This document shows, piece after piece, positions 1,580 to 23,308 of a stretch of DNA of 24,602 nucleotides. Made by a program: the position numbers and the translations under genes. Position 1 is the first letter of the stretch; every line of letters starts with the position of its first letter. The notes under the pieces are model-generated. The model had not been told where the DNA came from. It did not search any database and saw only the letters and a list, made by a program, of their open reading frames with translations. The stretch is from a virus (Duplodnaviria > Caudoviricetes): the IMG/VR virus record IMGVR_UViG_3300043205_000037, positions 1 to 24,602 of that record, one strand, 5' to 3'.

Positions 1580-1792
1580 TCATGGATGGGGTCTTCTAAG
1601 CGTCATAACCTCATGTGCGCGACAAACAGGGCATTGCATATGGCGGTCAGTCCTCTCGGCATCGCCGGCATCTATGACTTGCAAAATTCCCTGACCGCAT
1701 GCTGGGCAAGGGACGGCCGCCTTCGGATCGGCCGCCAGGATTTTTGCCGCTTCGATCCAGCGCCGCCGCTGGGCGTTGATGTCTCCGGTCAT
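1580..1792 (-). CDS. Small CxxC...CxxC protein, putative immunity protein for the upstream toxin
   Basis: 70 aa with CPAC and CPVC. ATGA overlap with the stop of 1789..2766. Confidence 0.7.
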   Translation of the reverse strand: MTGDINAQRRRWIEAAKILAADPKAAVPCPACGQGILQVIDAGDAERTDRHMQCPVCRAHEVMTLRRPHP

Positions 1793-2766
1793 TGATCCAT
1801 AACTCCCGATCGAAGGACTTTGTCCACAAACTTTCGCGCAGCGTCATACTCGACGGCGGCCGATTCAGCTGAATGGACGCCAGTAGCTCCCGCTTGCGAT
1901 GTGTTGAGCCTATATAGTTCTTGCAACACCGTTGCTTGTGTTTCTTGCGGCGTTGCGAACGCGCCCGGTCCCAATGCAAAGCCGTTATTCTTAAAGTTGG
2001 TCATGCCCGATATATACGACGGTATATTCGGCTCGTACTGAATTGTTCGGCCGCCGATCGTAACGGTACTTTCTTGCTCGGCCAAATACGCCGCTCGAAG
2101 TTGCGCAAACTCTTGTGAGCTCAGCACGCTTTGCGCTTCATTGACGGTTATACCTTCGATGGCTGCCGCCAGTCGAGCGCTGTCCGCGGCTCGGGAGGCA
2201 TTGACCGATTGTTGGACCGCGGCGGCCTCTTCCTCGGTGATCCTGCCAGTCGCAACAAGTCTTTCCAGGGTTGCCGCCAGGCCGACCGCCGGAGGGATAT
2301 CGTTGACAAGTTGAACCTGCCCCGAAGGCGCCTTCTGCCAATTCGGATTGCTGCCGCTCGCCGTGGCGTCCGTCAACGTATCGGACACCCGTTGAGCGTA
2401 GTGGCGCGTCCCCGGCGTATCGCCTGCGGCATGGGACGTGTCTTTCGGCGACCCGCTCCCGTCCTCCGTCGTCCATTGCCCGCCCTTCGAATTTCCGGCC
2501 GGCACCCGCGGCTGATCGGGATTGTACTTATTCAGTGCCGCCCGCAGCTCCGCTTTCGCAAGTACCGCGGCCGCTTCGAAGGCGTTACGGATGTCAGCGG
2601 CAAGCAGCTCGAAATCGCGGCGGATCGCGGCGATTTCGGCGTGGCGCCGCCGCAGCAGCTCGCCCTCGTCCGGGCCCGCCAACGTGCGGATCGCTTTGGC
2701 GATTTCGAGTTGCACGTGCAACGCCCGGGGCACGGCGCTTTCGATGCGCGGCAGCGGAGGCTTCAT
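1789..2766 (-). CDS. Polymorphic toxin: conserved MKPPLP carrier domain plus unassigned tip
   Basis: N-terminus matches the four other carrier copies up to KYNPDQPRVPAGNSKGGQWT. Lower-GC unique tip (GRTIQYEP..SGMT..NGF.LG..AF...TVLQELYRL). Alternative GTG start at 2796. Confidence 0.8.
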   Translation of the reverse strand: MKPPLPRIESAVPRALHVQLEIAKAIRTLAGPDEGELLRRRHAEIAAIRRDFELLAADIRNAFEAAAVLAKAELRAALNKYNPDQPRVPAGNSKGGQWTTEDGSGSPKDTSHAAGDTPGTRHYAQRVSDTLTDATASGSNPNWQKAPSGQVQLVNDIPPAVGLAATLERLVATGRITEEEAAAVQQSVNASRAADSARLAAAIEGITVNEAQSVLSSQEFAQLRAAYLAEQESTVTIGGRTIQYEPNIPSYISGMTNFKNNGFALGPGAFATPQETQATVLQELYRLNTSQAGATGVHSAESAAVEYDAARKFVDKVLRSGVMDQ

Positions 2767-2932
2767 TTGCTTGATCTCGGTGTGGAAGGCTTTCACGGCG
2801 CATGCGTGTTGGCTTGTCCGGTGCGGTGTGCGCTCCGGTCAGAGGGCAGTTCTGGATTCGGTTGAAAGCTCGAAGAAAAGAGCGGTGGGCGCGTCAGCTA
2901 CGCCTTCGGCTTGCTGGGCCGCGACGTGCCGT

Positions 2933-3217
2933 TCAGCGCCACCAGACAAATACCACGACGATAACACTCAGCGGCAGGACCATGGCGGATAGCAGCCGCC
3001 GCCAAGCCCGCTCGCTTATCGCGGATATGCAGGCTATGACGCCGGCGCCGGCCGATATCAGCCAACACAAAAGTATTTCGAGCGGCGCAAAGTCCAAACC
3101 TGGTCCTGTGCGGTCGTACGTGATGAAAAGCCAGGACCAAAAGACAGCCAGTACAGTCGGCCAATAGAGGACCCGATCCTTGATCGGGATGATTTGATCG
3201 TCGCTCGCGGCTTGCAT
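2933..3217 (-). CDS. Truncated membrane immunity-family paralog (DRVLYWP family)
   Basis: 94 aa hydrophobic protein with DRVLYWP and WRRLLS motifs shared with the genes at 14046, 17502 and 18228. It lacks their C-terminal YDESD/GHFYF part. Confidence 0.65.
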   Translation of the reverse strand: MQAASDDQIIPIKDRVLYWPTVLAVFWSWLFITYDRTGPGLDFAPLEILLCWLISAGAGVIACISAISERAWRRLLSAMVLPLSVIVVVFVWWR

Positions 3218-3224
3218 ATCGGAC

Positions 3225-3476
3225 TTATTGCCTACTTTGCCGAATTCGTCCGGACTCATAGAGATCATAGCCCTTTAGATTATCTTCGACATCCCGTTTG
3301 GACAAGTGTGAGTAGACTTCGTCCCTCGGATCGCCTGCGCTAAAAGTAGACAACGCGCTGGCATAGGCATCCGCGATTGCGAGATAATCATCCCTGCTAA
3401 CGCCCGCCGCCGCCATAAAGACGCCGGTCGCGATACTCGTATAGTGACGATAATCGCGAACGTAGGTGCGCTCAAT
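3225..3476 (-). pseudogene. Orphan Ntox44-like toxin tip fragment
   Basis: Frame reads IERTYVRDYRHYTSIATGVFMAAAG...DEVYSHLSKRDVEDNLKGYDLYESGRI, homologous to the tips at 14774 and 19851. No carrier domain. The frame is bounded upstream by the barstar stop codon. Confidence 0.75.
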
Positions 3477-3494: not shown

Positions 3495-3950
3495 TCATCG
3501 TTCTCGAGAGCGCCCCGGTTTCAATTGTCGCCGAAGATTATCGGCTATCGAGCGGAGTTTGGGGTCGGGTCCTTCGTATTGCACTGCCTCAACCGCATCG
3601 CGAATCTTGGCCACTTGATCATCAGACATGCTGCCATCGTTCGCAGGTGCATTCACAATCGAGACTTCAACGTCATCGCCGTTGTGCCGTTTTCGATAAA
3701 TGCGTCCTTCCACGAGCATACCGCTTACCAATTCGACATGGTCATGAACCTCTTTCGGCGTCGCTGAAAGGCCAGAGATTTGGACCGAATACGGCGGTTC
3801 CACAGCGTTGATTCCGCCCCAAATCATGGAATCGACCAAAGCGTCAGGGCTCTGGCCGTGCCGAGCCGGCGCACCAATCGAGGCGAGGAGCGCATGATAA
3901 AAATCGATCACCGTTTTCCATTTTGTGGCATCAAGCTCGATGGTTCGCAT
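3495..3950 (-). CDS. Barstar-family RNase inhibitor (immunity) with C-terminal extension
   Basis: MRTIELDATKWKTVIDFYHALLASIGAPARHGQSPDALVDSM fits the barstar N-terminal pattern. Starts 5 bp after a barnase-like toxin. Confidence 0.85.
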   Translation of the reverse strand: MRTIELDATKWKTVIDFYHALLASIGAPARHGQSPDALVDSMIWGGINAVEPPYSVQISGLSATPKEVHDHVELVSGMLVEGRIYRKRHNGDDVEVSIVNAPANDGSMSDDQVAKIRDAVEAVQYEGPDPKLRSIADNLRRQLKPGRSRER

Positions 3951-3955: not shown

Positions 3956-4777
3956 CTACTCGCCGCGCGGGTTCAGGTTGAGACGATAGAAGCTGCGGTA
4001 ATGATTGTTGGTGTAATACATCGCTCCAATACCAGCATCAATCACGATTCTGCCAACGCCTCTGCCGGCGCCAAGTCCCGGCACATCGAAAGCAATATAC
4101 CCGCTCGCGCCAGGAGGTAGAACAGCGCCTGTCTCATAGTGCGGACGGTTCTCGTAGGCATGCGGATACAACGTGCTGAAGTCCTGATTTAATATAAGAG
4201 TCAGTGCGTCTGCAACATTTTGCTGTTCGTCCGGCAATATCGGACCGTTCAATCCTTTTGGGTCTAACGGATCTTTTCCTGGCGGACGCGCAATCGTAAA
4301 CCCGCGAGGCGTGACCTCGTTCTGTGCAAGCCGCGGACCGTTGTCAAAAGCGTTAGCCTCGCCGGTACCGGTCTCATCCGTCAGCGTGCCGGTATCTATT
4401 GCGGCGTATCGTTTGGGCGACTCCGACCCAACGCCCGCAGCATTGAAACTATCTGCCGACGATCCGTTGCCACCGTCGCTCGTCCACTGCCCGCCATCGG
4501 GATTGCCGGCGGGCACGCGCGGTTGGTCGACGCTGTATTTTTTCAGCGCCGCCCGCAACTCCGCTTTCGCCAGCATTGCGGCCGCCTCGAAGGCTTTGTG
4601 CAGGTCGCGGGAAAGCGCCTCTAAATCGCGGCGGATCGCGGCGATCTCTGCGCGGCGCTGCCGCAGCAGTTCGTCCTCGTCCGGCCCGGCGAGCGTGCGG
4701 ATCGCTTTGGCGATCTCGAGGCGCACGTGCAACGTCTGCGGCACGGCGCTCAAGGTGCGTGGCAGCGGAGGCTTCAT
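3956..4777 (-). CDS. Polymorphic toxin: MKPPLP carrier plus barnase/RNase Sa-family ribonuclease tip
   Basis: ATG at 4777 matches the paralog starts. Tip YENR...LP...Y..FDV...RG.GRIV...YYTNNHYRSF. Adjacent barstar. Confidence 0.88.
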   Translation of the reverse strand: MKPPLPRTLSAVPQTLHVRLEIAKAIRTLAGPDEDELLRQRRAEIAAIRRDLEALSRDLHKAFEAAAMLAKAELRAALKKYSVDQPRVPAGNPDGGQWTSDGGNGSSADSFNAAGVGSESPKRYAAIDTGTLTDETGTGEANAFDNGPRLAQNEVTPRGFTIARPPGKDPLDPKGLNGPILPDEQQNVADALTLILNQDFSTLYPHAYENRPHYETGAVLPPGASGYIAFDVPGLGAGRGVGRIVIDAGIGAMYYTNNHYRSFYRLNLNPRGE

Positions 4778-4809: not shown

Positions 4810-5129
4810 CGGCACCGAAAAGGCAAAGCAGATGATGCGGGCGAGCCATTCGTCGAAATCGTCCTTGTGCTGCGGCTCCTTGGTCTGGACGACCTTTGCC
4901 GCGGTCTCGCCGGGCACGAATTTTGCCCGCCGGCGCTTGGCCAGGTCGCCGGCGAAGCCCCCACCCTTCCCTCCCCCGCAAGCGGGGGAGGGTTAGGGAG
5001 GGGGAATCCTGGAACTGCTTGATCTGGTCCGGTGTCCAGCCCTGCGGCACGCCGATCAGCGCGTCGGGGATCGAGCCTTCGGTGAAATAATCGAGCTGCC
5101 AGAGCTGGCGGCGCAGCGCGATGTTGACG
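4810..5129 (-). pseudogene. Internal portal-gene fragment interrupted by a REP palindrome
   Basis: Near-identical to portal ~12511-12796 (NIALRRQLWQ...CFAFSVP). The YWDTEF codons are replaced by a REP, causing a frameshift. Confidence 0.85.
4958..5004. repeat. REP-like palindrome
   Basis: CCCCCACCCTT-CCCTCCCCCGC-AA-GCGGGGGAGGG-TTAGGGAGGGGG. Same family as the elements at 6727, 12941 and 13708. Confidence 0.8.
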
Positions 5130-5176
5130 ATACAAACCGTCGATGGGCAATCGGATTTAACTTTGACTCTCAGTCG

Positions 5177-6505
5177 CTATTGTTTCCGAAGCCGCGGTAT
5201 GTCTTGGGTTTTCAAGATGACTTGTCCTGGCTCTTCTACAGGCCAGTGAAGATATTTTTTTCTTGTCAGTTGTTCGATGGTCGTTCGGTTTTTGCGAAAT
5301 GCCTCTACACGGCCCTCGTTCGTCACGTTGTTGGCTCCAAAGTGGTCCGCTAGGCCCTCACGACTCACGGCGCAACGCACCTCATCGCCGAACGACTCGC
5401 CAGCAAATGCGACTATATCTCTCTGAAAGTCGTACCGTGGGGGCGGATTATTAAAAGTCAAATCGATTCCGGGAACGATATCCCGACTTTTGTCTACGGC
5501 TTTGAGTACAATGTCGCGTGGACTTATGGGCAACTGACTTAACCCTTCAAGAATAAGTCGACCCCACGTCTTTCCGCGCGCAGACGCTTCCTGCCAAGCT
5601 GACTTCAGGTCATAGGGGTTCTTTTCGGCAAGGATCACAAATAGTGATGCTGCTTGATCGATATCCTTTTGCCGTTTGGCAACCCCTTCGGGTCGAAGAC
5701 GAGACACTATGAGCTTGTGGATGGCGTACCGGGCTGGTGATGGCACGAGCACGTAAATGCCAACAGCATGGAGTATCGCGGCAGGCTCGGGATCGCTGAT
5801 CAAAAAGTCAAGGAACCTCAACGGTTCAGCCTCGGTTTGGAAGGCAGGTAGCGCCTTTGGTATGTCAGTATCGCGCCCTTGATTGGGCGTAAGAAAATCA
5901 ACGCGTATTCCTCCCTTGCCGACGTAGCTCGTAACATCGCCCTTGTGAAGGTGGGGAATAGGTCGAAATGTTTTATCGACCTGCTTCAGGACATCGAGGA
6001 CCGGAGGTATGCGGTCTCCTACCGCCACGGACACGTTGCTAAATTGCGCGATATCCACGTCGCTTGTTTGCAAGATTGACCGGGGTAAACGCGTTCCGAG
6101 CATCGCGGAATAAGTCTGATAAGCGACGGTACCGACCAGAACACCGCGAAGACGGAATACCCCTGCGTTCGCCAAGGCATTAACTACCTCGCCGATTTCG
6201 GGCGCAGGAGGCTGAAGCCCGAAAGAACGGACCAGCGTCGAAACCAGAGAGCGCCGTTCACGCTCGTCGCTTCGTATTTGCTTGTGGTGCGCAATCTGGT
6301 CGAGCAGCTCGGGTGTCTCCGGCCCAACATACTTTTGTTCACGGCCTCCAGTCGTTGAGCGCTGGAAGTACCAATATCGCTGTCCCTTGATCGTCTTGAC
6401 AACGAAAGCGCCGTCTTGCGGAAAATCGGTCTGAAACGCTGTCGCCCTGCACCGTTCAAGGAGTTCGGCGTAGGTTGTCTGCAGTAAAAGGGGTGGCGGT
6501 GCCAT
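5177..6505 (-). CDS. GSU2403-family nucleotidyltransferase-fold protein with C-terminal DUF1488-like domain
   Basis: YWYFQ...KYVGPET, GVFRLRGVLVGTVAY and TSDVDIA (G...DxD nucleotidyltransferase pattern), YAIHKLIVS. Tail VRCAVSREGLADHFG...FRKNR. GGAG RBS before ATG 6505. Lower GC. Confidence 0.8.
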   Translation of the reverse strand: MAPPPLLLQTTYAELLERCRATAFQTDFPQDGAFVVKTIKGQRYWYFQRSTTGGREQKYVGPETPELLDQIAHHKQIRSDERERRSLVSTLVRSFGLQPPAPEIGEVVNALANAGVFRLRGVLVGTVAYQTYSAMLGTRLPRSILQTSDVDIAQFSNVSVAVGDRIPPVLDVLKQVDKTFRPIPHLHKGDVTSYVGKGGIRVDFLTPNQGRDTDIPKALPAFQTEAEPLRFLDFLISDPEPAAILHAVGIYVLVPSPARYAIHKLIVSRLRPEGVAKRQKDIDQAASLFVILAEKNPYDLKSAWQEASARGKTWGRLILEGLSQLPISPRDIVLKAVDKSRDIVPGIDLTFNNPPPRYDFQRDIVAFAGESFGDEVRCAVSREGLADHFGANNVTNEGRVEAFRKNRTTIEQLTRKKYLHWPVEEPGQVILKTQDIPRLRKQ

Positions 6506-6516
6506 AGGAGCTCCAG

Positions 6517-6597
6517 TTATACTCAAAAAGCAAATTGAGTATAATATAGGGGGCCCACTAGGGCAAGAATTATACGCAGGTTGCGAAACGCGTATAA
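6517..6597 (-). promoter_or_regulatory. Sigma70-like promoter between two 28-bp palindromic operators
   Basis: Minus strand TTGCCC (6566-6561)-17 nt-TATACT (6543-6538). Palindromes TTATACTCAA-N8-TTGAGTATAA (6517-6544) and TTATACGC-N12-GCGTATAA (6570-6597). Confidence 0.75.
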
Positions 6598-6633
6598 TAA
6601 AATTGCCACTTATTTAACGGCGCCTGCGGAAGG

Positions 6634-6884
6634 CCCCTTGTGCTGCGGCTCCTTGGTCTGCACCACCTCGGCGGCCCTCTCGCCGGCACGAACTTGGTGT
6701 GGCGGCGCCCGGCGAGGTCGCCGACGCCCACACCCTTCCCTCCCCGCAAGCGGGAGAGGGTCAGGGAGGGGGTTAGTCCTCCGGACTGGCGAATCTGGCC
6801 CGGGGTCCAGCTCTGCGGCACGCCGAGCAAGGCGTCGGGGATCAAACCTTCGGTGCAGCAATCGTGCCGCCAAAGCTGGCGGCT
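6634..6884 (-). pseudogene. Degenerate portal-gene fragment with REP insertion
   Basis: Diverged copy of RQLW...TEG.IPDAL.GVPQ.WTP.QI...KFVP...VVQTKEPQHK. A REP sits at the same site as in the 4810-5129 fragment. Confidence 0.8.
6727..6772. repeat. REP-like palindrome
   Basis: CCCACACCCTTCCCTCCCCGCAAGCGGGAGAGGGTCAGGGAGGGGG. Confidence 0.75.
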
Positions 6885-7335
6885 ACGAACCATCCAGGCG
6901 ACGCGCTAATTCCTCCGCCTGCGGCAAATCGCGCTCAATGTCATGCACAACTTGTAATGACTCGTCCGCGGTCAGGAGTTTTCCCTCTTGCTCATCAAAA
7001 ACGACGCCGCCTGTCGCCCGCGCGTACGCCGTCGCCGCCATCCAAACAGCTATCAGCTCGTCAAAACCCGCTATCCAGGGGAAGGTAACAACATACTTCC
7101 AACTGTGACCGAAATTAATGTTCTTGTAGGTACTCATCAGATCCGCAGGATCCTCAATCCAACACTGAAAACTCGTTGGTCTGTCATGGAGGTGGGCGGT
7201 CAGAGTCCCACCGTCTTCATCAAACAGGACATCGTGCGCCAATCGCAAAGGCAAGCCTTCAGCGTCTAACGACCGCTGCCAGCTAGAAATTGAATCAAGT
7301 CGCGAGTCGGAGAGAACGTTGATTTCGACTGACAT
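6883..7335 (-). CDS. Putative immunity protein (family shared with 21123 and 21680)
   Basis: Follows a PD-(D/E)xK tip. Motifs VLSD.RL.SI..WQ...DAEG and W.AA.AYA.AT.GVVFD..EG shared with two paralogs that follow the homologous tip at 22157. Confidence 0.8.
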   Translation of the reverse strand: MSVEINVLSDSRLDSISSWQRSLDAEGLPLRLAHDVLFDEDGGTLTAHLHDRPTSFQCWIEDPADLMSTYKNINFGHSWKYVVTFPWIAGFDELIAVWMAATAYARATGGVVFDEQEGKLLTADESLQVVHDIERDLPQAEELARRLDGS

Positions 7336-7382: not shown

Positions 7383-8822
7383 CTAGTCCGGGTCGCCCTG
7401 CTGTGACTTTATGACTGGCCCGCGCTCGATGTGCAGATCAATGACCGGGACACGGGAGACCGCTTTTGTCGCGGCACGAAGTTGGTTCGCTCTACCTGGC
7501 CTCAGGCTAGCGTCTAGGGTCTTAACATCGTAGATCGCGATTACATCACCACTATCATTGCGCAAAACAGCATCTGGCTTGACAGCCTTTCTACGGCCAC
7601 CGTAGTCGGAAGGCAAACTGAATGTGTGCTCAACATCGGAAGGACTAATGCCGCGTATCCGCTCAGCGATTACCGCGGCAGCGAACCGCTTGTGAATCAA
7701 AATTCCATAGAAACTTGGAGATAAGTGCGTCGGAGCAGTCTCGTCGACAACCCTTGCAAGAATTTCTGACAATCTTTTGGTTGTTTCATCGATTTGCTGA
7801 ATTCCTGTCCATGCATTTGGCCCATATACAATGTCCCTCGGCGGGCCGGCATATTGCTCACCCTTGGGAACATTTGACGTGTCTGGTCGTCCCTCGGTTT
7901 CCAAAGCGGCATAGCGGGTCTCGGACCTCGAACTTTCGGCGGCAACAGGTGGGAAATTGTATGGAGTCTGACTACCCTCCCCGTCCTTCGGCCGAAACTT
8001 GCCGCCACGGCCTCCTGGGGTCCCGGTCGGCCAGCCGGGATGCTCAGGATCGTCCGAGCTCGCTTTCAGAAGCGCGAGTTTTGCGGATTGCGTCTCTGCA
8101 CCCGCGCTATGCCCATTCGCGCCCGTGCGTCCGGTGTTGGCTCCCTGCCCGCCCGCATTCGCCTCGATCGGCACAAAGCCGGTGGCGGTGAGCACCATCG
8201 GGCGGTCGGCGGCGGCGTTGTCGAAGGGGTCGAGGCCGAGGGCGTCGCGCATCTCGTTGAGCGTGAGCGCACCGACTTTCAGCCGGCCTTCGAGCACCGT
8301 CTCGGGATCGCCTTCGTCCTCGTCGAGCCAATGCAGCTCGAGATCCGGCGAGGCGAATTCCTCCGCCACGATCTCGTCGATCAAATCCTTGACCCACTCC
8401 TTGGTCGGCTCGAGCCCCTCTTCCTCGGCCTGCGCCGACTGGTTGTCGGCGGTGGCGCGGTTCATCGCCTTGGTGGCCCATTGCGGCGGCACCGAAAAGG
8501 CAAAGCAGATGATGCGGGCGAGCCACTCGTCGAAATCGTCCTTGTGCTGCGGCTCCTTGGTCTGCACGACTTTGGCCGCGGTCTCGCCGGGCACGAATTT
8601 TGCCCGCCGGCGCTTGGCCAGGTCGCCGGCGAATTCGGTGTCCCAATAATCCTGGAACTGCTTGATCTGGTCCGGCGTCCAGCCCTGCGGCACGCCGATC
8701 AGCGCGTCGGGGATCGAGCCTTCGGTGAAATAATCGAGCTGCCAGAGCTGGCGGCGCAGCGCGATGTTGACGGTCATCAACACCTGCTGCACCGGCGAGA
8801 AGCCGTAGACCCGGTGGGCGCG
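7383..8822 (-). pseudogene. 5'-truncated portal-toxin cassette with PD-(D/E)xK nuclease tip
   Basis: 8148-8822 is near-identical to the portal 3' region. It continues in frame through LLKASSDDPEHPGWP..GGRGGKFRPKD to the tip YGILIH...KPDAVLR...IYDVKT. No portal N-terminus. Open from GTG 8792. Confidence 0.85.
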
Positions 8823-8859: not shown

Positions 8860-9573
8860 TCAGTCACGGCACTCGCCGAATTCGGTTACGCGCCCGTCAT
8901 ATTTTTGGATTGAAGCGCACAAGCGGCTTGCCTCCGTAACGTCGCCTTCCTCTTTGCAGCTTCCTTTGATGCGCCAGTATTTGCCTTTGTCCTCTGCCAG
9001 CATCGGCGCTTGAACTTTAATATCATGGTGATGAGCATCAAAAAGCGCTTCGATGATGCTTGTGGCTAGCCTAGCATCAAAAACAACACCTCCGCGCGCC
9101 AATCCGGTTAAAAACATAATCCCCGACTCGGAAGCCGGGTCGGATCCTTCGTTTCTGAGCCGTGGTCCTGAAGCTGGAGCCGAATTCAAACTTGATTTCT
9201 GTTCATTATGGCCGTCGCGTATTGCTTTGACGACCAAAGGATGCGGTGGGCATCGAACATACTCGCCAAAATCGATCACTCGCGCATCACGCTTCTCAAT
9301 GGAGAGGAAGAATTCCGCAGGACCATTGATCGCTCCGTCGCGGTTTCGATTGCCTTCGACACGCCAATAATCTCCCCTATCTATCAACGACAGCGGCGAT
9401 TGCTCCCGAAGGTCGCCATAATGCGCCTCGCAAAATAACTCCGCGAGCTTGATTGCTAGGTTTTTATCGGACAAGAGGTCATCTGAGAACGTTTCCATCA
9501 TGATCACAAGCCTTGCTGTGAGATGCGATGAAATCAAGCAATTGCTTCTGTCAATGCGTCGGTTTCGATCCAC
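8860..9573 (-). CDS. Immunity protein with two tandem NTF2-fold immunity (YbbC/YhhH-like) domains
   Basis: Internal duplication: LAIKLAELFCEAHYG..QSPL...GDYWRVEG...SIEKRDARVIDFGE versus LATSIIEALFDAHH..QAPM...GKYWRIKG...SIQKYDGRVTEFGE. True start may be ATG 9501. Confidence 0.75.
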   Translation of the reverse strand: MDRNRRIDRSNCLISSHLTARLVIMMETFSDDLLSDKNLAIKLAELFCEAHYGDLREQSPLSLIDRGDYWRVEGNRNRDGAINGPAEFFLSIEKRDARVIDFGEYVRCPPHPLVVKAIRDGHNEQKSSLNSAPASGPRLRNEGSDPASESGIMFLTGLARGGVVFDARLATSIIEALFDAHHHDIKVQAPMLAEDKGKYWRIKGSCKEEGDVTEASRLCASIQKYDGRVTEFGECRD

Positions 9574-11029: not shown

Positions 11030-11069
11030 CTATCCAATTGAGTTGGACCGCCGGCGGATTCCCTAGGTC

Positions 11070-14045: not shown

Positions 14046-14777
14046 TCAATGATTGCACTGCCGAGAATTGTCGTAACGATCAAGCGGGCAAATGGTGACA
14101 AAATAAAAATGCCGGAACATGCGGGAATCGCGAGAAACCGGTGTGCCTGATACTTCCGACGACATGTGATAACCCTCGAATGGTCCAGCACAAATCCCGG
14201 AACGGAGCCCGGTCGCATCGCTCTCATCATAGGCGACCCCAATACCGCAAGGCGCAGTGTCAGCCCAGCCCCACACCTTGAATCGCGGCTTGTCGGCGGG
14301 CAGCCTGGATATCTCGGCCGTGTAACGAGGATACATGACGGAAAGATAGACGTAGTCCCCGCCGCGCCTGAAGGCATCGAGATTGGCTGCCGCAACAATC
14401 GCGGTCAGCAGCAAAATGAGCGTGGATAACAGCCGACGCCAAGTGTGTTTGAGTCCGTGCTCGACACAGTTCATCGCGGCAATAATGGCGACGGTTACGC
14501 CCGCCCCGCCCCAGAACAAAAACAACAGGGGAATGAAGAATGCGTATAGAAAATATGGACCGGCAATCCCAAAGGCAGTGGCCAGCGGACAGGCCTTCGC
14601 AATGTCGGCGCCGTCGCAAGCAAAAGTGGCAAGGCCGAAAGGGACAAAGACAATATACAGGAGGGATTTGAGGAATGGACCCGGATAAGCAATCAAGCAG
14701 GTCAGCGCACAGCCAGCAGCGGTAGCGACCGGCCAATAGAGAATTCGGTCGTCAGTCGCGCCTTGCACGGCAGTCAT
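14046..14777 (-). CDS. Membrane immunity protein (DRILYWP family)
   Basis: Multi-pass hydrophobic N-terminus with C-terminal PRFK.W...CG.G.AYDESD...HFYF. ATGA overlap with the Ntox44-like toxin. Confidence 0.8.
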   Translation of the reverse strand: MTAVQGATDDRILYWPVATAAGCALTCLIAYPGPFLKSLLYIVFVPFGLATFACDGADIAKACPLATAFGIAGPYFLYAFFIPLLFLFWGGAGVTVAIIAAMNCVEHGLKHTWRRLLSTLILLLTAIVAAANLDAFRRGGDYVYLSVMYPRYTAEISRLPADKPRFKVWGWADTAPCGIGVAYDESDATGLRSGICAGPFEGYHMSSEVSGTPVSRDSRMFRHFYFVTICPLDRYDNSRQCNH

Positions 14778-15847: not shown

Positions 15848-17379
15848 GCGATCGACCCTTTGTCGTCATCGACCAACTGCTGGTAGCCGGCCTTGAGGAG
15901 GGGCTCGACGTCGCCCGGCGCCACCGCGATCACACGGTCAGCGCCGACCATATAATATGTCGTGGACAGACCATGAACGCCGGAGATGTTCTCCGGCACG
16001 CGCAAGCGGATCGTCGCCGGCGCTTCGGGGGCCGCCGCGGCCGCGGCCGGCCGGGCCTGGTCCTCCACCTTGAGACGGTAGAATTCGATGATCGCGGTGT
16101 TGTCGGCTTTCAGCATCAGCTCGGTGACGGCAAAGATCAGCGCGTCGGCGTGATCCGGACTGCCCTCGCCGCGATAGCCCGCGGTGGTGAAGGCGCAGAG
16201 CTGGTCCTCCAGCACGGCGAAACGGCCGACGTGATGTACGATACCCTGCTCGTACAGCGCCGACACCGGCTCGGCGCGCAGCACCTTGCCGCGCGAGGCC
16301 GAGATCATGTGCACCGGCAGATTGGGATCGGCGGCGCGGATGACGAAGCGCACCATCTCGCCGCCGAAATTCTCCTCCGCCACGATGCGGTCGGCGTCGA
16401 AATCGTGATAGGCCTGCACCGCGACGCGGCCCCACGCGGCGGGCGCATCGCGCAGCGAGCGGTCGGCGAGCACGTAAGCGTGGCCGTCGGCGCCGCGCGC
16501 GGCAACGACGATGCCGATCTCGTCGGCGCGTTCGTCGTCGCGGCTCGAGGCGCCCGACGGATCGACCGCGACGACGACGCGCCGGCGGTCGGCCTTCGGC
16601 AGGTCGGCAACGCGCGCGCGGGCGATCATCTCGTAGCTGAACAGCGCACCGTCGAGATTGTCGATATAGACGCCTTCGAAGAAGCGCTTGCGCTGCCGCT
16701 CGGGCAGCCGTTCGAGGCTCTTGAGGTAATCCGCCGATAGATTGTCGGCGTTGTCGCGTGGATTGAGAAATATCCGCTCGTAGTTGTCAGGATCGTCAAG
16801 CGGCAGTTGCGAGATCGGATCGCGCTTCTCGCCGAACAGAACGTTGGTCCAGTGGCCCTTGCTGGTCGGGTTCAAGTCGTAATAGGCGGCCTGGCGGAGA
16901 TCGCCGGCAACCTGCGCCAGCCGGGTCAGCGCGACCAGCACCGAGGAGTAGGGAATCTGCGAGCATTCGTTGAGAAAGATCGTGACATATTCCTTGCCCA
17001 GAATCTTCTCGACCCGCTCCTGGTCGTCGAGGCCGGCGAACCAGATTTCCGATTCGTTATTGAGCGAAAAATACCCCTCGGTGCGGTGGTGTTTGTGCGG
17101 CACCATGGGGTCCCAGAAGCGAAACACCTTCGGCAGCGTGTCAAGCGCGATCGAGGGCCGCACCGCATTGGCGCGGAACCGCAGGATAGCGTGACGCGAG
17201 GCGTCGGCGCGCAGCGCACGGGTGACGATTTCATGGACCAGGAGCGTGGTCTTGCCGGACCGCGCGCCGCCCACGAGCAGCGTGTGCCGCTGCGACCGTC
17301 CCAGGAGCTTTTGCGCGTCCTGCTGCCTGGCAGTGCGCTTGAATTGGGACTTTTGAGACGGCTCGTTCTCGCTTCCCAT
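15844..17379 (-). CDS. terL: Phage terminase large subunit
   Basis: Walker A GGARSGKT, Walker B-like IFLNE, coupling motif DLNP, nuclease motifs VVVAVDPS, IVAEENFGG and SPDHADAL. Confidence 0.93.
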   Translation of the reverse strand: MGSENEPSQKSQFKRTARQQDAQKLLGRSQRHTLLVGGARSGKTTLLVHEIVTRALRADASRHAILRFRANAVRPSIALDTLPKVFRFWDPMVPHKHHRTEGYFSLNNESEIWFAGLDDQERVEKILGKEYVTIFLNECSQIPYSSVLVALTRLAQVAGDLRQAAYYDLNPTSKGHWTNVLFGEKRDPISQLPLDDPDNYERIFLNPRDNADNLSADYLKSLERLPERQRKRFFEGVYIDNLDGALFSYEMIARARVADLPKADRRRVVVAVDPSGASSRDDERADEIGIVVAARGADGHAYVLADRSLRDAPAAWGRVAVQAYHDFDADRIVAEENFGGEMVRFVIRAADPNLPVHMISASRGKVLRAEPVSALYEQGIVHHVGRFAVLEDQLCAFTTAGYRGEGSPDHADALIFAVTELMLKADNTAIIEFYRLKVEDQARPAAAAAAPEAPATIRLRVPENISGVHGLSTTYYMVGADRVIAVAPGDVEPLLKAGYQQLVDDDKGSIA

Positions 17380-17501
17380 TCGCGTTCTGTCGTTCTGTTG
17401 TTCGGTGAATCACACTCCTGCGCCAGAGAAAGCGGCGCTCACTGTTGAGCCAAGGATGGACAGAATTCCGAATCCGAATGCAAGCGGCCGTTGGCCAACG
17501 A

Positions 17502-18200
17502 CTAGCAGGTGAGAACGAAATAGAAGTGGCCGAACGCACGGGAAACATACTCAACTTCGACGGTGCCGATACGTTCGTCTGTTACCCATCGGGTGCGAAA
17601 CACCAACGCGCCGCTCTCGTCATAGGCTATACCCGTGCCGCACGGTCCGTAGAAGTACCGTTGCCACACCTTGAACCGCGGCTCATCGGCTGGCAGTTGC
17701 GCCACTTCGACCATGTAGCCGGGATATCGGGCAAGCAGATAAATGTAGTCGCCAGCGGTATGTCCTGCGCGCCAGAAAAACTCGACATTGTACAGCGCAA
17801 CCAGCGAAACCAACGGCAAAATCACGATGGACAAGAGCCGGCGCCAAGAGTGCTTAAACCCCCTTTCCACTCCCTCCATGACGGCAATCAAAGGAACAAC
17901 CACACCCGCGCCAAGCCAGACTCCAAAGGCCAGAGGACCTATTATCAGGGAGAGCAATCCAGCGAGAATGAATGGACCGGTAATCCATGCCAACGAGCAG
18001 ACAACGCCGCCACTCTTACAGGCCGCAGCGTCAATAATGAGGGAGACGAAAGTGACGAACGGCGTGAACGGGCCACAAATGAGCTGAACGAGGAACGTAT
18101 CGGACCAGGCGAGTATACAGATCACCGGACAGCCAATGGCGATAGCAAGAGGCCAATAGAGAACTCGGTCGTTATCTGCCCCTTGCACGCCGGACCTCAT
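17502..18200 (-). CDS. Membrane immunity paralog (DRVLYWP family), orphan
   Basis: Collinear similarity to 14046..14777 along its whole length. No toxin immediately upstream. Confidence 0.8.
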   Translation of the reverse strand: MRSGVQGADNDRVLYWPLAIAIGCPVICILAWSDTFLVQLICGPFTPFVTFVSLIIDAAACKSGGVVCSLAWITGPFILAGLLSLIIGPLAFGVWLGAGVVVPLIAVMEGVERGFKHSWRRLLSIVILPLVSLVALYNVEFFWRAGHTAGDYIYLLARYPGYMVEVAQLPADEPRFKVWQRYFYGPCGTGIAYDESGALVFRTRWVTDERIGTVEVEYVSRAFGHFYFVLTC

Positions 18201-18227: not shown

Positions 18228-18788
18228 CTAGCAATCATGGCCGACAAAGTAGAAATGGCCGAAGATCGGTGTGTAGCCGTACACGCAATTTGCATCGGTC
18301 AAGGCGGCTCGTCTCTTCCACGCGTCGGAGCGCTCGGTCGCCGGCCGCGTGATCTCATCGCTTGCATCGTACACGACCCCGCGCGATACCGCTAAAAATC
18401 CACCCCAATCCTGGAACATGAACCGCGGCTCGTCAGTAGGCAGCTTCGATATCTCGATGAGATAGATCGGTAGCATGGCGTAAAAATGGACGTAGTCTCC
18501 GGCCCCTTGTCCGGCGCGCCAAGCAAAGCCCGGATTGAGACCCGCCACGAGCACGGTCAGCGGCAACACAATCGTCGACAAGAACCGGCGCCACGTCCGC
18601 AGATAGAGCCATGCCAAACAAATCAAAGTAGCGACTCCAGCTGATAAGGCCCACAAGGCAATGACCAACGGACCGCCATAGAATGATAAGTCAAACGGCC
18701 CCGCCCAAGCCAAAATAAAGGCGATAGGCCAAGCCACAGAGAGAATGATCGGCCAGTAGAGGATGCGATCTGGACGACCAAATTGCAT
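18228..18788 (-). CDS. Membrane immunity paralog (DRILYWP family)
   Basis: DRILYWP, WRRFLS, GDYVHF, EPRF, VYDASD and FGHFYF motifs. Follows an orphan tip. Confidence 0.8.
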   Translation of the reverse strand: MQFGRPDRILYWPIILSVAWPIAFILAWAGPFDLSFYGGPLVIALWALSAGVATLICLAWLYLRTWRRFLSTIVLPLTVLVAGLNPGFAWRAGQGAGDYVHFYAMLPIYLIEISKLPTDEPRFMFQDWGGFLAVSRGVVYDASDEITRPATERSDAWKRRAALTDANCVYGYTPIFGHFYFVGHDC

Positions 18789-18800: not shown

Positions 18801-19020
18801 CTATCGTCCGGCCGCGATTCGACCGGACTCGTAAAGATCGTAACCCATCTTCATGTCGAGCACGTCCCGCTTTGGCAAATGGGTGTAGATTTCATCCATT
18901 GGCTCATGGAAGCTGGAAGAATACTTTGCATAGGTGTCTGCAAACCACATACCGTCCTCAAATTTAATTCCCGCTGCGGCAAAATAAAGGCCAATCACAA
19001 GGTTTGCATAGTCGCGGTAG
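18801..19020 (-). pseudogene. Orphan Ntox44-like toxin tip fragment
   Basis: YRDYANLVIGLYFAAAGI...MDEIYTHLPKRDVLDMKMGYDLYESGRI. Abuts a copy of the terL 5' end instead of a carrier. Confidence 0.8.
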
Positions 19021-19168
19021 CAGCGTGTGCCGCTGCGACCTTCCCAGGAGCTCTTGCGCGTCCTGCTGCCTGGCAGTGCGCTTGAATTGGGAGTCTTGAG
19101 ACGGCTTGCGCTCGGTTCCCGTTCGCGTTCTGTCGTTTTGTTGTTCGGTGAATCACACTCCTGCGCCA
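19019..19168 (-). repeat. Direct-repeat copy of terL 5' end and leader (17276-17425)
   Basis: Collinear near-identity by eye. The terL ATG is ACG in this copy. Confidence 0.88.
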
Positions 19169-19277
19169 AGGGGCGCTTACGGTTAAGCCAAGATCAAGAG
19201 AGCTAACTTGCGGTCTGTTGGTTCTAATCGGCGAAGTCCGTCTCTGCTGGGCTCGGCGCTTTGCGCTCGGCCTGCTA

Positions 19278-19838
19278 CTAACAAAAGGTCGCGAAATAGA
19301 AATGTCCGAATGCGCGGGAGTTGCCGTGCACGTCCACCGTGCCAACAAGTCCATCGCTCGTCGAGCGGTGCCTGGACGCAATCGCGTCGCTTTCATCGTA
19401 GGCAATCCCGCTGCCGCAAGGCCCGGCGAAATGCCATTGCCACGCCTTAAAGCGCGGTTCCGGCAGGTCCGATATCTCGGCCATGTACCAAGGATACAAG
19501 GCAAAGAGGTGAACATAATCGCCTGACGCGGCAGCCGACTGCCAAGCCCATCCGAGATTCACTCCGGTTACGACCATGACCAGCAGCAGGATCAGCTTCG
19601 ACGGGAAACGGCGCCATTCGCGTTGGTAGGCCGAGACGGCAAGCGCCAGGGCATCGAGATAAGTCAAGCCGGCCCAGGCGACAAAGACGACGAGCAATAT
19701 CGCGCCACAGATGAAGAGGACAATGATTCGATCGCTTACAATATCGATAAGAATACGGACACCAAAAACGGACAATGGTCCAAGCACCGCAAAGATCCAC
19801 GTCCAAATTCGCACGCGACTATCAAGTGTGCTCTGCAT
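19278..19838 (-). CDS. Membrane immunity protein (same family as DRILYWP proteins)
   Basis: Hydrophobic N-terminus, then GDYVHL..YP.Y..EIS.LPEPRFK.W...CG.GIAYDESD...FGHFYF. Directly after the Ntox44-like toxin. Confidence 0.8.
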   Translation of the reverse strand: MQSTLDSRVRIWTWIFAVLGPLSVFGVRILIDIVSDRIIVLFICGAILLVVFVAWAGLTYLDALALAVSAYQREWRRFPSKLILLLVMVVTGVNLGWAWQSAAASGDYVHLFALYPWYMAEISDLPEPRFKAWQWHFAGPCGSGIAYDESDAIASRHRSTSDGLVGTVDVHGNSRAFGHFYFATFC

Positions 19839-19850: not shown

Positions 19851-20957
19851 CTATCGTCTCAACCGAATGCGCCCGGACTCGTACAATCTATAGCCCAATT
19901 TCGTGTCTTCGACATCCTGCTTGGCTGAGTGCGTGTAGACTTCGTCCATCAACTCTTCGGTCGCGAATGTCGATTTGCGGGAGGCGTAGAAATCTATGGC
20001 GGAGAGGACGTCTTCGCGGTTTAAACCCGCAGCCGCAGAATAAACACCGATCATTATGTTTAGATAGTGGCGATAGTCGAGAACGTAATTCCCATCGAAC
20101 CGTTCAGCGTCCAACAATCCTCCGGGCGCGACTGGAAGTAATGCCGAATAAAGTGCGACTACCGCACCTAAGACCTTGGCGTCCGAAACCCCATCACCCG
20201 TCCCAGGCTGCAGCAATCCAGCGGATTGCGCGCCCAAAAATCGATTTGCAAGTCCAGCTCGGAGATATCTTTCGGGCGGAAGGTCATCCGGTCTGGAGAT
20301 GGGATTATCCAGGATGTCGAGAACGGGTTGGCCATCACTGTCTACGAATCGCACCGGATGCCTTGGATGATCCGCCACTATCTCATTCGACCAAATCAAG
20401 TCACGAGGTATTGTCGATTGGACAGTGTGGAGCACGCTCTGAAGATTGGTCAGAATTTGCGTGTCTTGCGTGGCGCTGTCTGTCGTACCGCCGCTCCTGC
20501 CCACCGCCGCCGGACTCGTGCCTGGAATTTCCAGCGACGCATACCGTATGCGCGTTTCAGCATTTTCATTAACGGCATCTGCTTGACCATCCTTGGGCCG
20601 GAATCGACCTCCCTGGCGGTCTGGCGCTCCAGCCGGCCAACCTGGATGCTCTGGGTCATCGACTGCTGCTTTCGTGGTTCCACGGCGGTCCGGCACCCGC
20701 GGATGGTCGGGGTTATATTTTCTCGGTGTCCCGCACAGCTCCGCTTTCACCAGCGCCGAAGCCTCCTTGAAGGCCCTCGGAATCTCGCGGGCAAGCGCCT
20801 CCAGGTCTTGGCGGATGGCGGCGATCTCAGCACGGCGCTGGCGCAGCGGATCATCCCCATTGGGCGCCGTCAGCGTGCGGACGGCCTTGGCGATTTCGAG
20901 CTGCGCGTGCAGCGTTCGCGGCACGGCGCTCTCGATACGCGGCAGCGGTGGTTTCAT
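19851..20957 (-). CDS. Polymorphic toxin: MKPPLP carrier plus Ntox44-like tip
   Basis: ATG at 20957 matches the paralogs. Contains both KYNPDHPRVP and DDPEHPGWP..GGRFRPKD motifs. Tip strongly similar to that of 14774..15847. Confidence 0.83.
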   Translation of the reverse strand: MKPPLPRIESAVPRTLHAQLEIAKAVRTLTAPNGDDPLRQRRAEIAAIRQDLEALAREIPRAFKEASALVKAELCGTPRKYNPDHPRVPDRRGTTKAAVDDPEHPGWPAGAPDRQGGRFRPKDGQADAVNENAETRIRYASLEIPGTSPAAVGRSGGTTDSATQDTQILTNLQSVLHTVQSTIPRDLIWSNEIVADHPRHPVRFVDSDGQPVLDILDNPISRPDDLPPERYLRAGLANRFLGAQSAGLLQPGTGDGVSDAKVLGAVVALYSALLPVAPGGLLDAERFDGNYVLDYRHYLNIMIGVYSAAAGLNREDVLSAIDFYASRKSTFATEELMDEVYTHSAKQDVEDTKLGYRLYESGRIRLRR

Positions 20958-20989
20958 CGGATTGGCCTTTTCCGCGCCGAGCGCCGCGA

Positions 20990-21119
20990 TCATTCGAACG
21001 CGATGTTGATGGCGCGAAGCCCGCGGTGGGTACGATCGATCTCGAAGCTGACCGGCCGGCCCTCGAAAAGCGCGCCGGCATTCGCCGGCAGGTCGGTGCG
21101 ATGCACGAACACGTCGCCC
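20990..21119 (-). pseudogene. Duplicated 3' part of the cold-shock gene (copy of 23342-23471)
   Basis: 130-bp collinear near-identical repeat encoding [10 protein letters not shown]...AINIAFE*. No 5' end. Confidence 0.9.
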
Positions 21120-21122
21120 CAA

Positions 21123-21602
21123 TTAAGTTTGTTTGCGTTGCGTCGCCAATCGCCGCATCAAATGCTGCTTACGCTCCCGCAATTCCGGCAAGAACTGCTC
21201 AAGATCGCGCGCGACATCGAGCGCCGCCGCCGGGCTGAAAAGTTTGCCCTCCTCGTCGTCGTATATGACACCGCCGGTAGCACGCGCATAAGCTATCGCA
21301 GCCATCCACGCCGCCGTTGAATTGTTGACATTCAGCCCGCCCCAGATAAATGCAAACGCGTACTTCCATTTGCGATCGAATTTCTCAGTTCCGTAACACT
21401 CCATCGTCTCCTGTGCGTCTCTGGGGTGAAACTCGAAATCGGTCAGTTCGTCGTGCAATTGGCCGAGCCATTTGCCGTTGATCTCGCTTGGGGGCACGTC
21501 ATCGGATAGCCACAGCCGGAAACCCTCGGCGTCGATCGCCTGCTGCCATTGGGCAATCGAGCCAAGAATCCGATCGGAGAAGACACATATCTGCATCGAC
21601 AT
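21123..21602 (-). CDS. Immunity paralog (family of 21680 and 6883), orphan
   Basis: MSMQICVFSDRILGSIAQWQQAIDAEG...WMAAIAYARATGGVIYD. Start chosen by alignment to paralogs. Confidence 0.8.
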   Translation of the reverse strand: MSMQICVFSDRILGSIAQWQQAIDAEGFRLWLSDDVPPSEINGKWLGQLHDELTDFEFHPRDAQETMECYGTEKFDRKWKYAFAFIWGGLNVNNSTAAWMAAIAYARATGGVIYDDEEGKLFSPAAALDVARDLEQFLPELRERKQHLMRRLATQRKQT

Positions 21603-21679
21603 GACGAGCGCCGTCGACCTCAGGTCAATGAATGCGCAGGCTTGATAACTTGCATGTTCGGGGCACATTCTCTGACAGA

Positions 21680-22123
21680 TCAGTGCCGCGACTGCAGCTC
21701 ACGCAACATCCTTGGCATGTCACGCACGATTTTTCTTGCTGCTTGTCTAGCCTCCTCCACAGGAAGGATCGACCCATCCTCACCATCAAACACGACGCCG
21801 TTCGTGGCGCTGGCATAAGCGGCTGCGGCCGTCCACGCAGCCTCAAATTCATGGAAATCGCCCCTCCAGCGGAACCCAAGCACAAATTTCCATTCGTGGC
21901 CGAAATCGATATCGGAATTTTCACTTATAAATTCGTCAGCTGAATCGTGATAGCATTCAAAACCAGTCAGCTTTCCATTTAATCGCGCGGGTAAAAATCC
22001 TGAATGCCATCGAAAGTCTGTGTCATCCAACTTGACGGCGAAGCCCTCGGCATCGATCGCCGCCTGCCACTCAGCAATTGATCCTAATTGCCGGTCGGAC
22101 AAGACAAACATCTCCATCGCCAT
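21680..22123 (-). CDS. Putative immunity protein for the 22157 toxin
   Basis: GGAGGG RBS. Immediately downstream of the nuclease tip. Paralogous to 6883..7335. Confidence 0.82.
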   Translation of the reverse strand: MAMEMFVLSDRQLGSIAEWQAAIDAEGFAVKLDDTDFRWHSGFLPARLNGKLTGFECYHDSADEFISENSDIDFGHEWKFVLGFRWRGDFHEFEAAWTAAAAYASATNGVVFDGEDGSILPVEEARQAARKIVRDMPRMLRELQSRH

Positions 22124-22156
22124 GTGAAAGCCCTCCCGCCTCCATTGCCGCCACGA

Positions 22157-23308
22157 TTACCGGCGTTTCAAAATAGCGCCTCGTACGCGATTCAACTCGA
22201 TCACCGGTATGGTACGGCCGGAATCGGTCATATAGCGAATCTTAATGACTCGGAGCTCGCTCATACCGCGTCCCGTCTTGATATCATAAATCGCAGCGAT
22301 GTTGCCGGTGTCGCGTCGAAGTATCGCGTCAGGTCTGATACTGTATTTGGCTCCATAAAACGCCTTATCGGTTAACGAGAAAGTTCTTTCCACGTCATTG
22401 GGCTCTATGCCCGGCAGACCCTTCGCACGCAACATCTCAGCAAAATCCGTGTGAACGCGGATACCATATTGGCCCGGGTCCAGGTCTGCTCGAGGTCCAA
22501 CTCCGTCCATGACATCGCCAAGGAGGTCCATCAGCTTTGCTGTTGTGCTGTCAATTAAGGGATCGCCCGTCTTTGTGTTTGGTGGGAAAATGAAGCGGCG
22601 GCCGGTACTTAGATCGCGGGGAAATCCAAGGCCGCGAAGCCGTGCGAGGAATTCCTCCGCCTCTTGCGCTCGGGCCTCCAGATTTGTGATCTTACCTTCG
22701 ATATCTTCGTAAACACCAGGACTCGGACTCCAGTTTTGATCAATTTTTCGCGCTTGCGCGATCAAATCGTTGAGCCGAGCCTGGGCGACATCCAGCCTTA
22801 TCAGCTGCCCGGGCGACGCTTCCATACCGCCTTCACGTTCATTTTCCTCATTGCTCTCATTACCGGCCGCGTATCGCGTCCCCGATGCCGGTGCATCCGT
22901 CAGCACATTGTTTGGTGAAGTTTCGAGTGAGGCATACCTCACAGGCACTCCGGAGCGTTCTGTAGATGTTCGACTGGAGGGGGTTGACGGTTGGTTTCCG
23001 CCGTCTCCCTTCGTCCACTGTCCACCGTCGGGATTTCCAGCCGAAACGCGTGGTTGGTCGGGGCTATATTTCTGCAGCGTTGCCCGCAGATCCGCTTTCA
23101 GCAGTGCCGCAGCTTCTTCGAAAGCTTTGCGGATATCGCCGGCGAGCACCTCAAGATCGCGACGCAGCGCAATGATCTCGGCGCGGCGCCAGCGAAGCAG
23201 CTCGTCCTCATCCGGCGCCATCAGCGTGCGCATGGCTTTGGCGATCTCAAGCTGTGCGTGCAGCGTTCGCGGTACGGCGCTTTCGCTGTGCGGCAGCGGA
23301 GGTTTCAT
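22157..23308 (-). CDS. Polymorphic toxin: MKPPLP carrier plus PD-(D/E)xK nuclease tip
   Basis: Carrier N-terminus. Tip YGIRVH..FA...DVERTFSL...RPDAILR...IYDIKTG, homologous to the tip of the 7383 portal cassette. Confidence 0.85.
   Translation of the reverse strand: MKPPLPHSESAVPRTLHAQLEIAKAMRTLMAPDEDELLRWRRAEIIALRRDLEVLAGDIRKAFEEAAALLKADLRATLQKYSPDQPRVSAGNPDGGQWTKGDGGNQPSTPSSRTSTERSGVPVRYASLETSPNNVLTDAPASGTRYAAGNESNEENEREGGMEASPGQLIRLDVAQARLNDLIAQARKIDQNWSPSPGVYEDIEGKITNLEARAQEAEEFLARLRGLGFPRDLSTGRRFIFPPNTKTGDPLIDSTTAKLMDLLGDVMDGVGPRADLDPGQYGIRVHTDFAEMLRAKGLPGIEPNDVERTFSLTDKAFYGAKYSIRPDAILRRDTGNIAAIYDIKTGRGMSELRVIKIRYMTDSGRTIPVIELNRVRGAILKRR

Follow-up and report, generated by a model that had tools for sequence, protein, structure and literature searches.

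Why should the head genes of a tailed phage be separated by a series of toxin and immunity genes? The question is raised by IMG/VR record IMGVR_UViG_3300043205_000037 (Caudoviricetes), positions 1 to 24,602 of which were analyzed here as one stretch, referred to below as the window. An earlier, sequence-only reading had proposed a capsid-associated toxin delivery system that does without the MuF head protein. Our analysis suggests that this is very probably a real polymorphic toxin-immunity locus, in which variable C-terminal toxin-like domains (tips) are joined either to the portal protein or to a short helical carrier through a common motif, here called the K-tag. The element that houses it looks like a long-resident cluster akin to gene transfer agents (GTAs), not a typical temperate phage.

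A probable polymorphic toxin-immunity locus among head genes

The window represents the head part of a gene cluster for tailed particles, and all of its genes lie on the minus strand (Table 1). Its scaffold comprises a cold-shock gene (csp), terL, the portal gene and an XkdF-type protease gene; the interspersion of these genes with cassettes, noticed in the sequence-only reading, is borne out by Pfam and PHROG matches, and the cassettes share the orientation of the head genes as that reading had it. The ATGA coupling it reported is seen as four-base overlaps at 3/26 junctions (terL/C3, C3/partner and C5/partner). Its count of eight fused tips stands, but their equal status does not: five (C1-C5) have a complete N-terminal carrier of about 80 amino acids (aa) common to them all, one is on a full portal, and two (P2 and P3) belong to 5'-truncated portal cassettes, 89-95% identical to the portal gene and unable to make a whole portal, leaving an intact anchor under only 6/8 fusions. 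The two orphan tips that were proposed both align with the C2/C3 tip family, and 'about a dozen' immunity-like genes became twelve small downstream partner genes that sort into six kinds: 2-5 membrane spans are predicted for five of them, three are soluble paralogues, and the others are a barstar, an Imm-NTF2-2 protein and two singletons. The GC content of the tip lies 9-17 points below that of its anchor in 8/8 cases.

The pairing of tips with partner genes was followed across 105 related loci (36 genomic loci, 55 viral loci and 14 flanking stretches). Each frame after the shared motif was taken as a tip; 69 of the 203 tag matches were dropped before clustering as short tips or duplicates, leaving 134 distinct tips of at least 90 aa, which form 28 tip clusters on constant N-terminal parts. 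A next gene was called for 118 of the 134 (16 had none), and the next-gene family is shared by 724/749 same-family tip pairs, against a mean of 80 and a maximum of 122 in 5000 shuffles, with the caveat that related loci share cassettes and the 749 pairs are not independent events. Tip-partner coupling is nearly one to one. Tips are also interchangeable between anchors: 8/11 tip families with at least three members occur on both portal and carrier, and in locus L034 a homologue of the C5 tip is carried by a portal. CdiA-CT RNase A was matched in four homologous tips (E 1e-15 to 1e-18), and homologous positions also hold AHH (weakly), Ntox37, Imm1, Imm52 and Imm32; known pairs are represented in the window itself by RNase-barstar, and Imm-NTF2-2 is present as well. 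The locus thus combines a constant N-terminus bearing variable C-terminal domains, a cognate downstream gene, and stand-alone cassettes (P2, P3 and the two orphans), and its cassette content varies between strains. The neighborhood survey of 105 loci supports the proposed two-carrier polymorphic toxin-immunity locus in a head operon.

What the tips do is less uniform than had been supposed. Outside the domains that pass a Pfam cut-off, toxin labels are weak matches, homologues or motifs read by eye. The C1, P3 and P2 tips show a D...(D/E)xK pattern, read by eye as a PD-(D/E)XK nuclease, and C2, C3 and both orphans are Ntox44-like. No solved structure matched the model of an Ntox44-like tip (best Z 5.5, no Foldseek match), and sequence searches found no solved relatives for two tip families. 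Because the partners of the Ntox44-like tips have 2-5 hydrophobic spans, the pairing suggests that these tips target the membrane or the periplasm and not RNA, and the four tips with membrane-bound partners may not be nucleases. The earlier description of the tips as nucleases fits at best 5/10 of them.

A shared K-tag in place of MuF

The HxxCRC motif, whose apparent lack had prompted the claim of a toxin locus without MuF, is indeed absent from all six frames of the window. None of the 27 window proteins has a MuF match in Pfam, PF04233 was found in 0/5 carrier genomes while controls match, and comparison of the carrier with the MuF tails of the nearest phages gave a profile-profile probability of 0.6% and no hmmsearch match. 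The carrier is modeled as one helix (residues 16-79; predicted local distance difference test score, pLDDT, of 80). On the Pfam, PF04233, profile-profile and model evidence we reject the idea that it is a MuF1/MuF2 variant, and the locus is without MuF as far as MuF1/MuF2 and all searches made are concerned. A copy of the capsid leader or of the protease scaffold was also considered and rejected, as neither gave a profile match; the carrier had no match in isolated phages, and an Atlas search returned an unnamed cluster only. The toxin genes do adjoin portal and terminase, as MuF toxins do. In relatives MuF itself is found at the portal end: the portal of Brevundimonas phage Polewnik, with 51% identity, ends in MuF (PF04233 E 6e-6), and MuF occupies this position in 11/20 viral portals aligned. 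Judged from these alignments, the portal end is a slot that holds MuF in relatives and tag plus toxin here.

Portal and N-terminal domain are both carriers, as the sequence-only reading held, but the one sequence common to them, which it overlooked, is a short tag motif at the start of each tip: [LV]xK/Y-x-P-D-Q-P-R-V-P-x-G-x-x-x-G-G-Q-W (the slash marks the putative cut), with one variant, D-D-P-E-H-P-G-W-P...G-G-K-F-R-P. A lysine stands 5-8 residues upstream of the motif in 116/123 portal and carrier tips, compared with 2% lysine in linkers; L, V or I lies two places before it in 100/122, and in an independent set the tag lysine is kept in 79/87. In the capsid proteins of the element and its phage relatives, [LI]xK/(S or T) lies just upstream of the conserved core and follows leaders of varied length. 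Head proteases of this type, such as that of HK97, cleave after lysine. We infer that the prohead protease cuts after the tag lysine, freeing tagged toxins inside the head, and that the K-tag would be both cleavage site and cargo tag. Because the tag is used with unrelated capsids, its putative partner is more probably the DNA or the exit channel than any single family of capsids.

In 5/5 genomes, matches to the carrier profile are confined to the element or its vicinity. A profile search with the carrier matched 1805 representatives (326 at E 1e-10). These include 15 large proteins (1130-2713 aa), in each of which the tag pattern recurs 3-8 times; it almost always follows K or KR, with A or E instead in one protein. 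In these proteins, 12/15 of which have a Pfam match, the tag heads modules matching ART-PolyVal, GNAT, Nudix, Acb1 and TopoIB. In viral contig L169 the tag lies between portal and MuF. Five tag motif strings were not found in the literature searched, whose coverage leaves out most subscription papers.

Tagged tips also occur in two further contexts. L039:16270 (G001:C48:221189) and L029:14095 have them on another N-terminal leader with Imm52-type neighbors, about 10 kb past the element or after a deletion. Tagged tips are likewise present on the portals of a second, distant clade (L105, L096/L171; 44% portal identity); L105 also has a truncated portal cassette, and in L096 an 800-aa tail-spike-like region is fused before the portal.

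The tag reaches well beyond this lineage. A pattern scan gave at least 133 stretches (about 310 estimated), and 71 distinct loci were examined: 22 lie in RcGTA-like head clusters (assigned when at least two genes reach at least 35% to L103, a rule under which some may be HK97-type prophages), 4 in elements of the window's type, next to aspS, and 11 near one head or tail gene. In Phyllobacterium bourgognense 31-25a (L189) the tag is fused to the head protease of an RcGTA-type cluster, with a truncated protease cassette next and a carrier-type gene after the capsid, and a metagenome-assembled genome of Hyphomicrobium has a tagged portal fusion and a truncated portal cassette.

The host element as a probable resident, GTA-like cluster

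The element is found in soil alphaproteobacteria and spans about 44 kb in genome G001, where its tail and lysis genes are complete; the window corresponds to its head part. Gene order in relatives begins with aspS, a gene of 125-153 aa, an XRE repressor, a GcrA-like gene, DUF6362, a 176-aa gene, csp, terL, portal, protease and capsid, and continues with connectors, tail tube, a tape measure of 400-460 aa, DUF2460, hub, NlpC-like, Rcc01698-like and lysozyme genes. In G468, which is 99.7-100% identical to the window, aspS is upstream and the capsid gene follows the protease, as it does in L051 (99.7% identical).

Several observations make this element look unlike a typical temperate phage. The gene aspS is upstream in 18/20 loci that reach far enough, and no integrase or replication match was found among the G001 element genes scanned, several of which have no family. 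Over 21 genomes, DNA distance is 0.14 for the capsid gene versus 0.16 for gyrB, and dN/dS (the ratio of nonsynonymous to synonymous substitution rates) is 0.13 for both. The capsid gene is present in 32/176 genomes of G001's genus (these are incomplete genomes), with at most one full copy each, and in 4/301 of a family sample; the DUF6362 gene is in 62/176 of the genus. The fixed site and the host-like rate of change are broad GTA traits. The head families (portal phrog_2662, capsid phrog_13692) are not RcGTA-type, and an RcGTA-type capsid was found in 0/5 carrier genomes versus 5/5 controls; the distal tail genes (DUF2460, BR0599 hub, Phage-tail_3, Rcc01698_C, GTA_TIM) are RcGTA-like. Taken together, these findings suggest a GTA-like cluster that has long resided in its hosts, with recombination as a likely part of its history. 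A typical temperate phage is improbable, given the fixed aspS flank, the gyrB-like rate and the lack of an integrase match among the G001 element genes scanned.

Three variations on the element were seen. In L023, L024, L027 and L029 it appears to be cut inside the portal gene and joined to downstream genes, with the regulatory front end kept. A gene with a Tle1-like phospholipase domain lies on the opposite strand within the connector region of L025:12104, L038:2071 and L056. In G468 (L107:703-2658) aspS aligns in two pieces, with about 27 extra in-frame codons, and long aspS calls occur in L026 and L030 too.

Accumulation of cassettes

Every additional unit in the window adjoins a scaffold-gene fragment, with one sharp junction; the fragments are a csp 3' part, a terL 5' part and portal 3' parts, to which relatives add capsid 3' fragments. 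Recombination anchored by homology on one side is a known mechanism, and cassette arrival by this route fits the borders. Cassette content differs between co-occurring strains, and in two other soil runs the scaffold is present, several tips have no coverage and other joints appear. An assembly artefact was considered and rejected for the unique parts of the window, which two runs cover at even depth and without differences. Single contigs of two runs bridge most of the tip-partner-remnant junctions. The order of the portal cassettes is not proven, because no contig spans the portal repeat and G468 has an extra copy of 4810-7076, and the identity of the tip on the full portal is less certain than the other assignments.

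Between terL and portal in L004, L005, L028 and L030, the place of the toxin cassettes of other loci is taken by two conserved genes with signal peptides; one product is about 233 aa long, and the other, of about 465 aa, has a tail-protein match.

A proposal for toxin delivery and its alternatives

We consider it on balance probable that the tips are packed in virus-like particles and delivered to neighboring cells, with release by the protease. Upon induction, the operon would be expressed with all of its partner genes, shielding the producer and its clone-mates. The full portal would carry its own tip inside the prohead, and the helical carrier would probably assemble together with the scaffold. 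The prohead protease would then likely cut after [LV]xK, a site that also precedes the mature capsid, making the tag the new N-terminus. Tagged tips would exit with the DNA and harm cells that have no partner gene. New tip-partner units would enter by recombination, one side being anchored in a conserved gene, which would leave duplicated csp, terL, portal and capsid fragments and push older tips downstream as reserve cassettes whose immunity is kept.

Several observations weigh against this proposal or its setting. With a toxin on each of the twelve portal subunits, packaging could be impeded. Only 1/8 window tips, the barnase-like RNase of C4, reaches a Pfam cut-off and the other seven miss every one, and the tip pairs counted above are not independent. 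No small terminase was identified in the element, several loci appear deleted after the portal gene, and the structural module was detected in 32/176 genomes, roughly half the number with the regulatory front end (62/176). Capsid and gyrB trees have 5/18 splits in common and supported conflicts (Mantel rho 0.26, p 0.037), and portal and protease distances show weak or absent signal against those of aspS, the halves of which agree poorly (low power). Lastly, no head or tail gene lies within 6 kb of 34/71 tag loci, so that the tag is not confined to head operons.

Could the toxins act within their own carrier cell, as addiction or abortive-infection modules that are freed by the protease in the producer and never delivered? 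The tight toxin-partner coupling, the frequent loss of the structural module where the front end persists and the separate nucleotidyltransferase module in the operon would all suit such a role. We nevertheless think it unlikely, as portal and protease fusions in unrelated head types, and the same tag on polyvalent head-type proteins, fit cargo better, and hoarded extra immunity genes without tips fit an attack from outside. The tag loci that adjoin no head gene and the membrane-spanning partners of the Ntox44-like tips could instead mean that the tag is a capsid-independent export or uptake signal, with head operons as just one place in which it settled. This seems improbable to us: in-frame fusion to portal and protease speaks for head cargo, and an RcGTA-type capsid gene is found elsewhere in 4/4 tested genomes whose tag locus adjoins no head gene, so that loading in trans is possible.

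Two further alternatives concern the element itself. The element could still be mobile, as a temperate phage or satellite that favors a single site and is itself served by the toxins, in the way suggested for MuF toxins. Such an element would agree with the filing of the window as a virus record, the complete set of head, tail and lysis genes, the patchy presence and partly incongruent trees, and the existence of true phages with the same head family; the same flank in 18/20 loci, the gyrB-like rate and dN/dS, and the lack of an integrase or replication match among the G001 element genes scanned make it a poor candidate. That the locus is a decaying remnant retained only for its immunity genes is very improbable. 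Truncated cassettes and remnants in the window and deletions in relatives would agree with decay, but the reading frames of terL, portal, protease and five carriers are open, dN/dS of the capsid gene is 0.13 and cassette content varies between co-occurring strains.

If the tips are indeed cargo, a wider proposal can be made, which we find conceivable rather than probable: alphaproteobacterial GTA-like particles, both those of the aspS element and many RcGTA-type clusters, may serve as kin-discriminating weapons, with a short protease-exposed tag loading fused toxins from the operon or in trans. Such particles would bring DNA to immune kin and death to others, the carried DNA would restock the cassettes, and the tag would be a general cargo signal of phage polyvalent proteins. 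Why cells keep suicidal GTA clusters is an open question, and toxin delivery to non-kin would be a direct benefit. The proposal is testable in cultured Phyllobacterium, where an RcGTA-type cluster has tag-toxin fusions on its head protease. More generally, the K-tag is a concrete candidate mark for head cargo across unrelated head families and polyvalent phage proteins, and the loci yield about a dozen recurring toxin-immunity families, most of them without a Pfam name.

Comparison with known systems

MuF polymorphic toxins have been proposed to travel in phage heads, and like the tips described here they have a variable C-terminal toxin and a downstream immunity gene within a terminase-portal-protease module (PMC3482391; PMC5576092; PMC11699363). 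The present locus differs in having no MuF1/MuF2, in its carriers (portal and a helix of about 80 aa, with several carriers per operon), in the reserve cassettes stacked at each scaffold gene and in the chromosomal residence of the element. The locus would operate like MuF toxins yet shows no MuF1/MuF2 domain, and the element would operate like a GTA yet has another head.

Portal-fused effectors are already in print: published portal fusions include RNase, 2H, Nudix and ART domains (PMC5512222; PMC9503650). There, as here, enzymatic domains sit on the portal or head protease and are thought to be injected; those effectors are anti-host, and the available parts of these papers mention no immunity genes, cassette arrays or tag. 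Polyvalent proteins have been described as head-packaged (PMC5512222), and polyvalent-type proteins in our searches bear the same K-tag as the window tips.

Slow change and stable flanks have been used to separate RcGTA-like clusters from prophages (PMC5721377), and the element resembles RcGTA-type GTAs in its stable chromosomal site, slow evolution and short tape measure. It shares with them the DUF2460, hub and Rcc01698-like tail genes, and GTA_TIM in relatives, but has another head family and other regulators (XRE, GcrA-like, DUF6362). In the literature searched, no polymorphic toxins in GTA clusters were found. The nearest isolated phages are the Brevundimonas phages Polewnik and Strzyga, with a 51% identical portal, the same gene order and the capsid site LAK/S; Polewnik differs in its MuF-ended portal, 966-aa tape measure and nucleotide-metabolism genes. 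Finally, units of truncated anchor, tip and immunity gene behind a full gene, and shared tip families, recall the orphan arrays of contact-dependent inhibition (CDI) and Rhs systems (PMC3482391), whereas the vehicle predicted here is a phage head and not a type V or VI system.

Features of the window and minor observations

Table 1. Genes, cassettes and remnants of the window, in order of transcription; imA, imB and imTM denote partner-gene families
Feature	Position	Strand	Evidence
Cold-shock gene (csp), conserved scaffold gene of the element	23342..23545	-	PF00313 E 7e-17; cluster in 26 loci
C1: helical carrier, K-tag, PD-(D/E)XK-like tip	22157..23308	-	tip label read by eye
imA, soluble partner of C1/P3 tip family	21680..22123	-	21/21 tips of family with called next gene precede imA family
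Second imA paralogue	21123..21668	-	39-43% identity to other two imA
csp 3' remnant and spacer (duplicated anchor)	20963..21119	-	92% to 23315-23471; sharp junction
C2: carrier, variant tag (K/A-x-x-D-D-P-E-H-P-G-W-P), Ntox44-like tip	19851..20957	-	Ntox44 E 0.024, below cut-off
imTM, membrane-spanning partner	19278..19838	-	2 hydrophobic spans; 24/24 pairings
Remnant of terL upstream region and terL 5' end (duplicated anchor)	19019..19192	-	89% to 17276-17454; sharp junction
Orphan Ntox44-like tip fragment	18801..19019	-	aligns with C2/C3 tip family
imTM	18228..18788	-	predicted membrane spans
imTM	17502..18200	-	5 hydrophobic spans
Terminase large subunit (terL)	15844..17379	-	phrog_979 E 2e-68
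C3: carrier, K-tag, Ntox44-like tip; ATGA-coupled to terL	14774..15847	-	Ntox44 E 0.014, below cut-off; all-helical model without solved match
imTM, ATGA-coupled to C3	14046..14777	-	predicted membrane spans
Only full-length portal, K-tag, AHH-like tip	11551..13653	-	PF04860 E 5e-16; homologous tips match AHH weakly, E 0.004-0.02
imB, partner of AHH-like tip	11070..11564	-	15/16 pairings
P2: 5'-truncated portal cassette, variant tag, PD-(D/E)XK-like tip (by eye)	9551..11031	-	90.6% to portal gene
Imm-NTF2-2 protein	8860..9573	-	PF15631 E 1e-8, over cut-off
P3: 5'-truncated portal cassette, variant tag, C1-family tip	7383..8822	-	95.5% to portal gene; tip 40% to C1 tip
imA	6883..7335	-	one of three soluble paralogues
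Decayed portal remnant	6636..6883	-	68-81% to other portal copies
Nucleotidyltransferase (NTP_transf_8) fused to DUF1488, neither tip nor immunity gene	5177..6526	-	GC-poor
Portal remnant without tip	4810..5129	-	84-87% to other portal copies
C4: carrier, K-tag, barnase-like RNase	3956..4777	-	PF00545 E 7e-7, over cut-off
Barstar	3495..3950	-	PF01337 E 1e-5, over cut-off; 5/5 pairings
Orphan Ntox44-like tip fragment	3225..~3491	-	aligns with C2/C3 tip family
imTM	2933..3268	-	predicted membrane spans
C5: carrier, K-tag, tip with zincin-like lead only	1789..2796	-	Atlas score 0.86 (lead)
70-aa CxxC partner, ATGA-coupled to C5	1580..1792	-	same tip-partner pair in L034
XkdF/S78-type prohead protease with C-terminal scaffold-like region	321..1337	-	PF14550 E 5e-5; phrog_80

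The conserved 176-aa gene upstream of csp (window 23909-24439) has no family and is a candidate small terminase or regulator. The nucleotidyltransferase gene lies between two portal remnants; its homologues elsewhere in related elements are often reversed and placed after the tail tube gene (L011, L048, L086, L094). Promoter and terminator scans gave chance-level results only. One family of G+C palindromes occurs at window positions 295, 4969, 6738, 12952 and 13709; the copy at 12941-12987 is an in-frame insertion in the portal gene and another (4958-5004) lies in a remnant. These sites have very high depth in the soil runs, so the repeat is common elsewhere.

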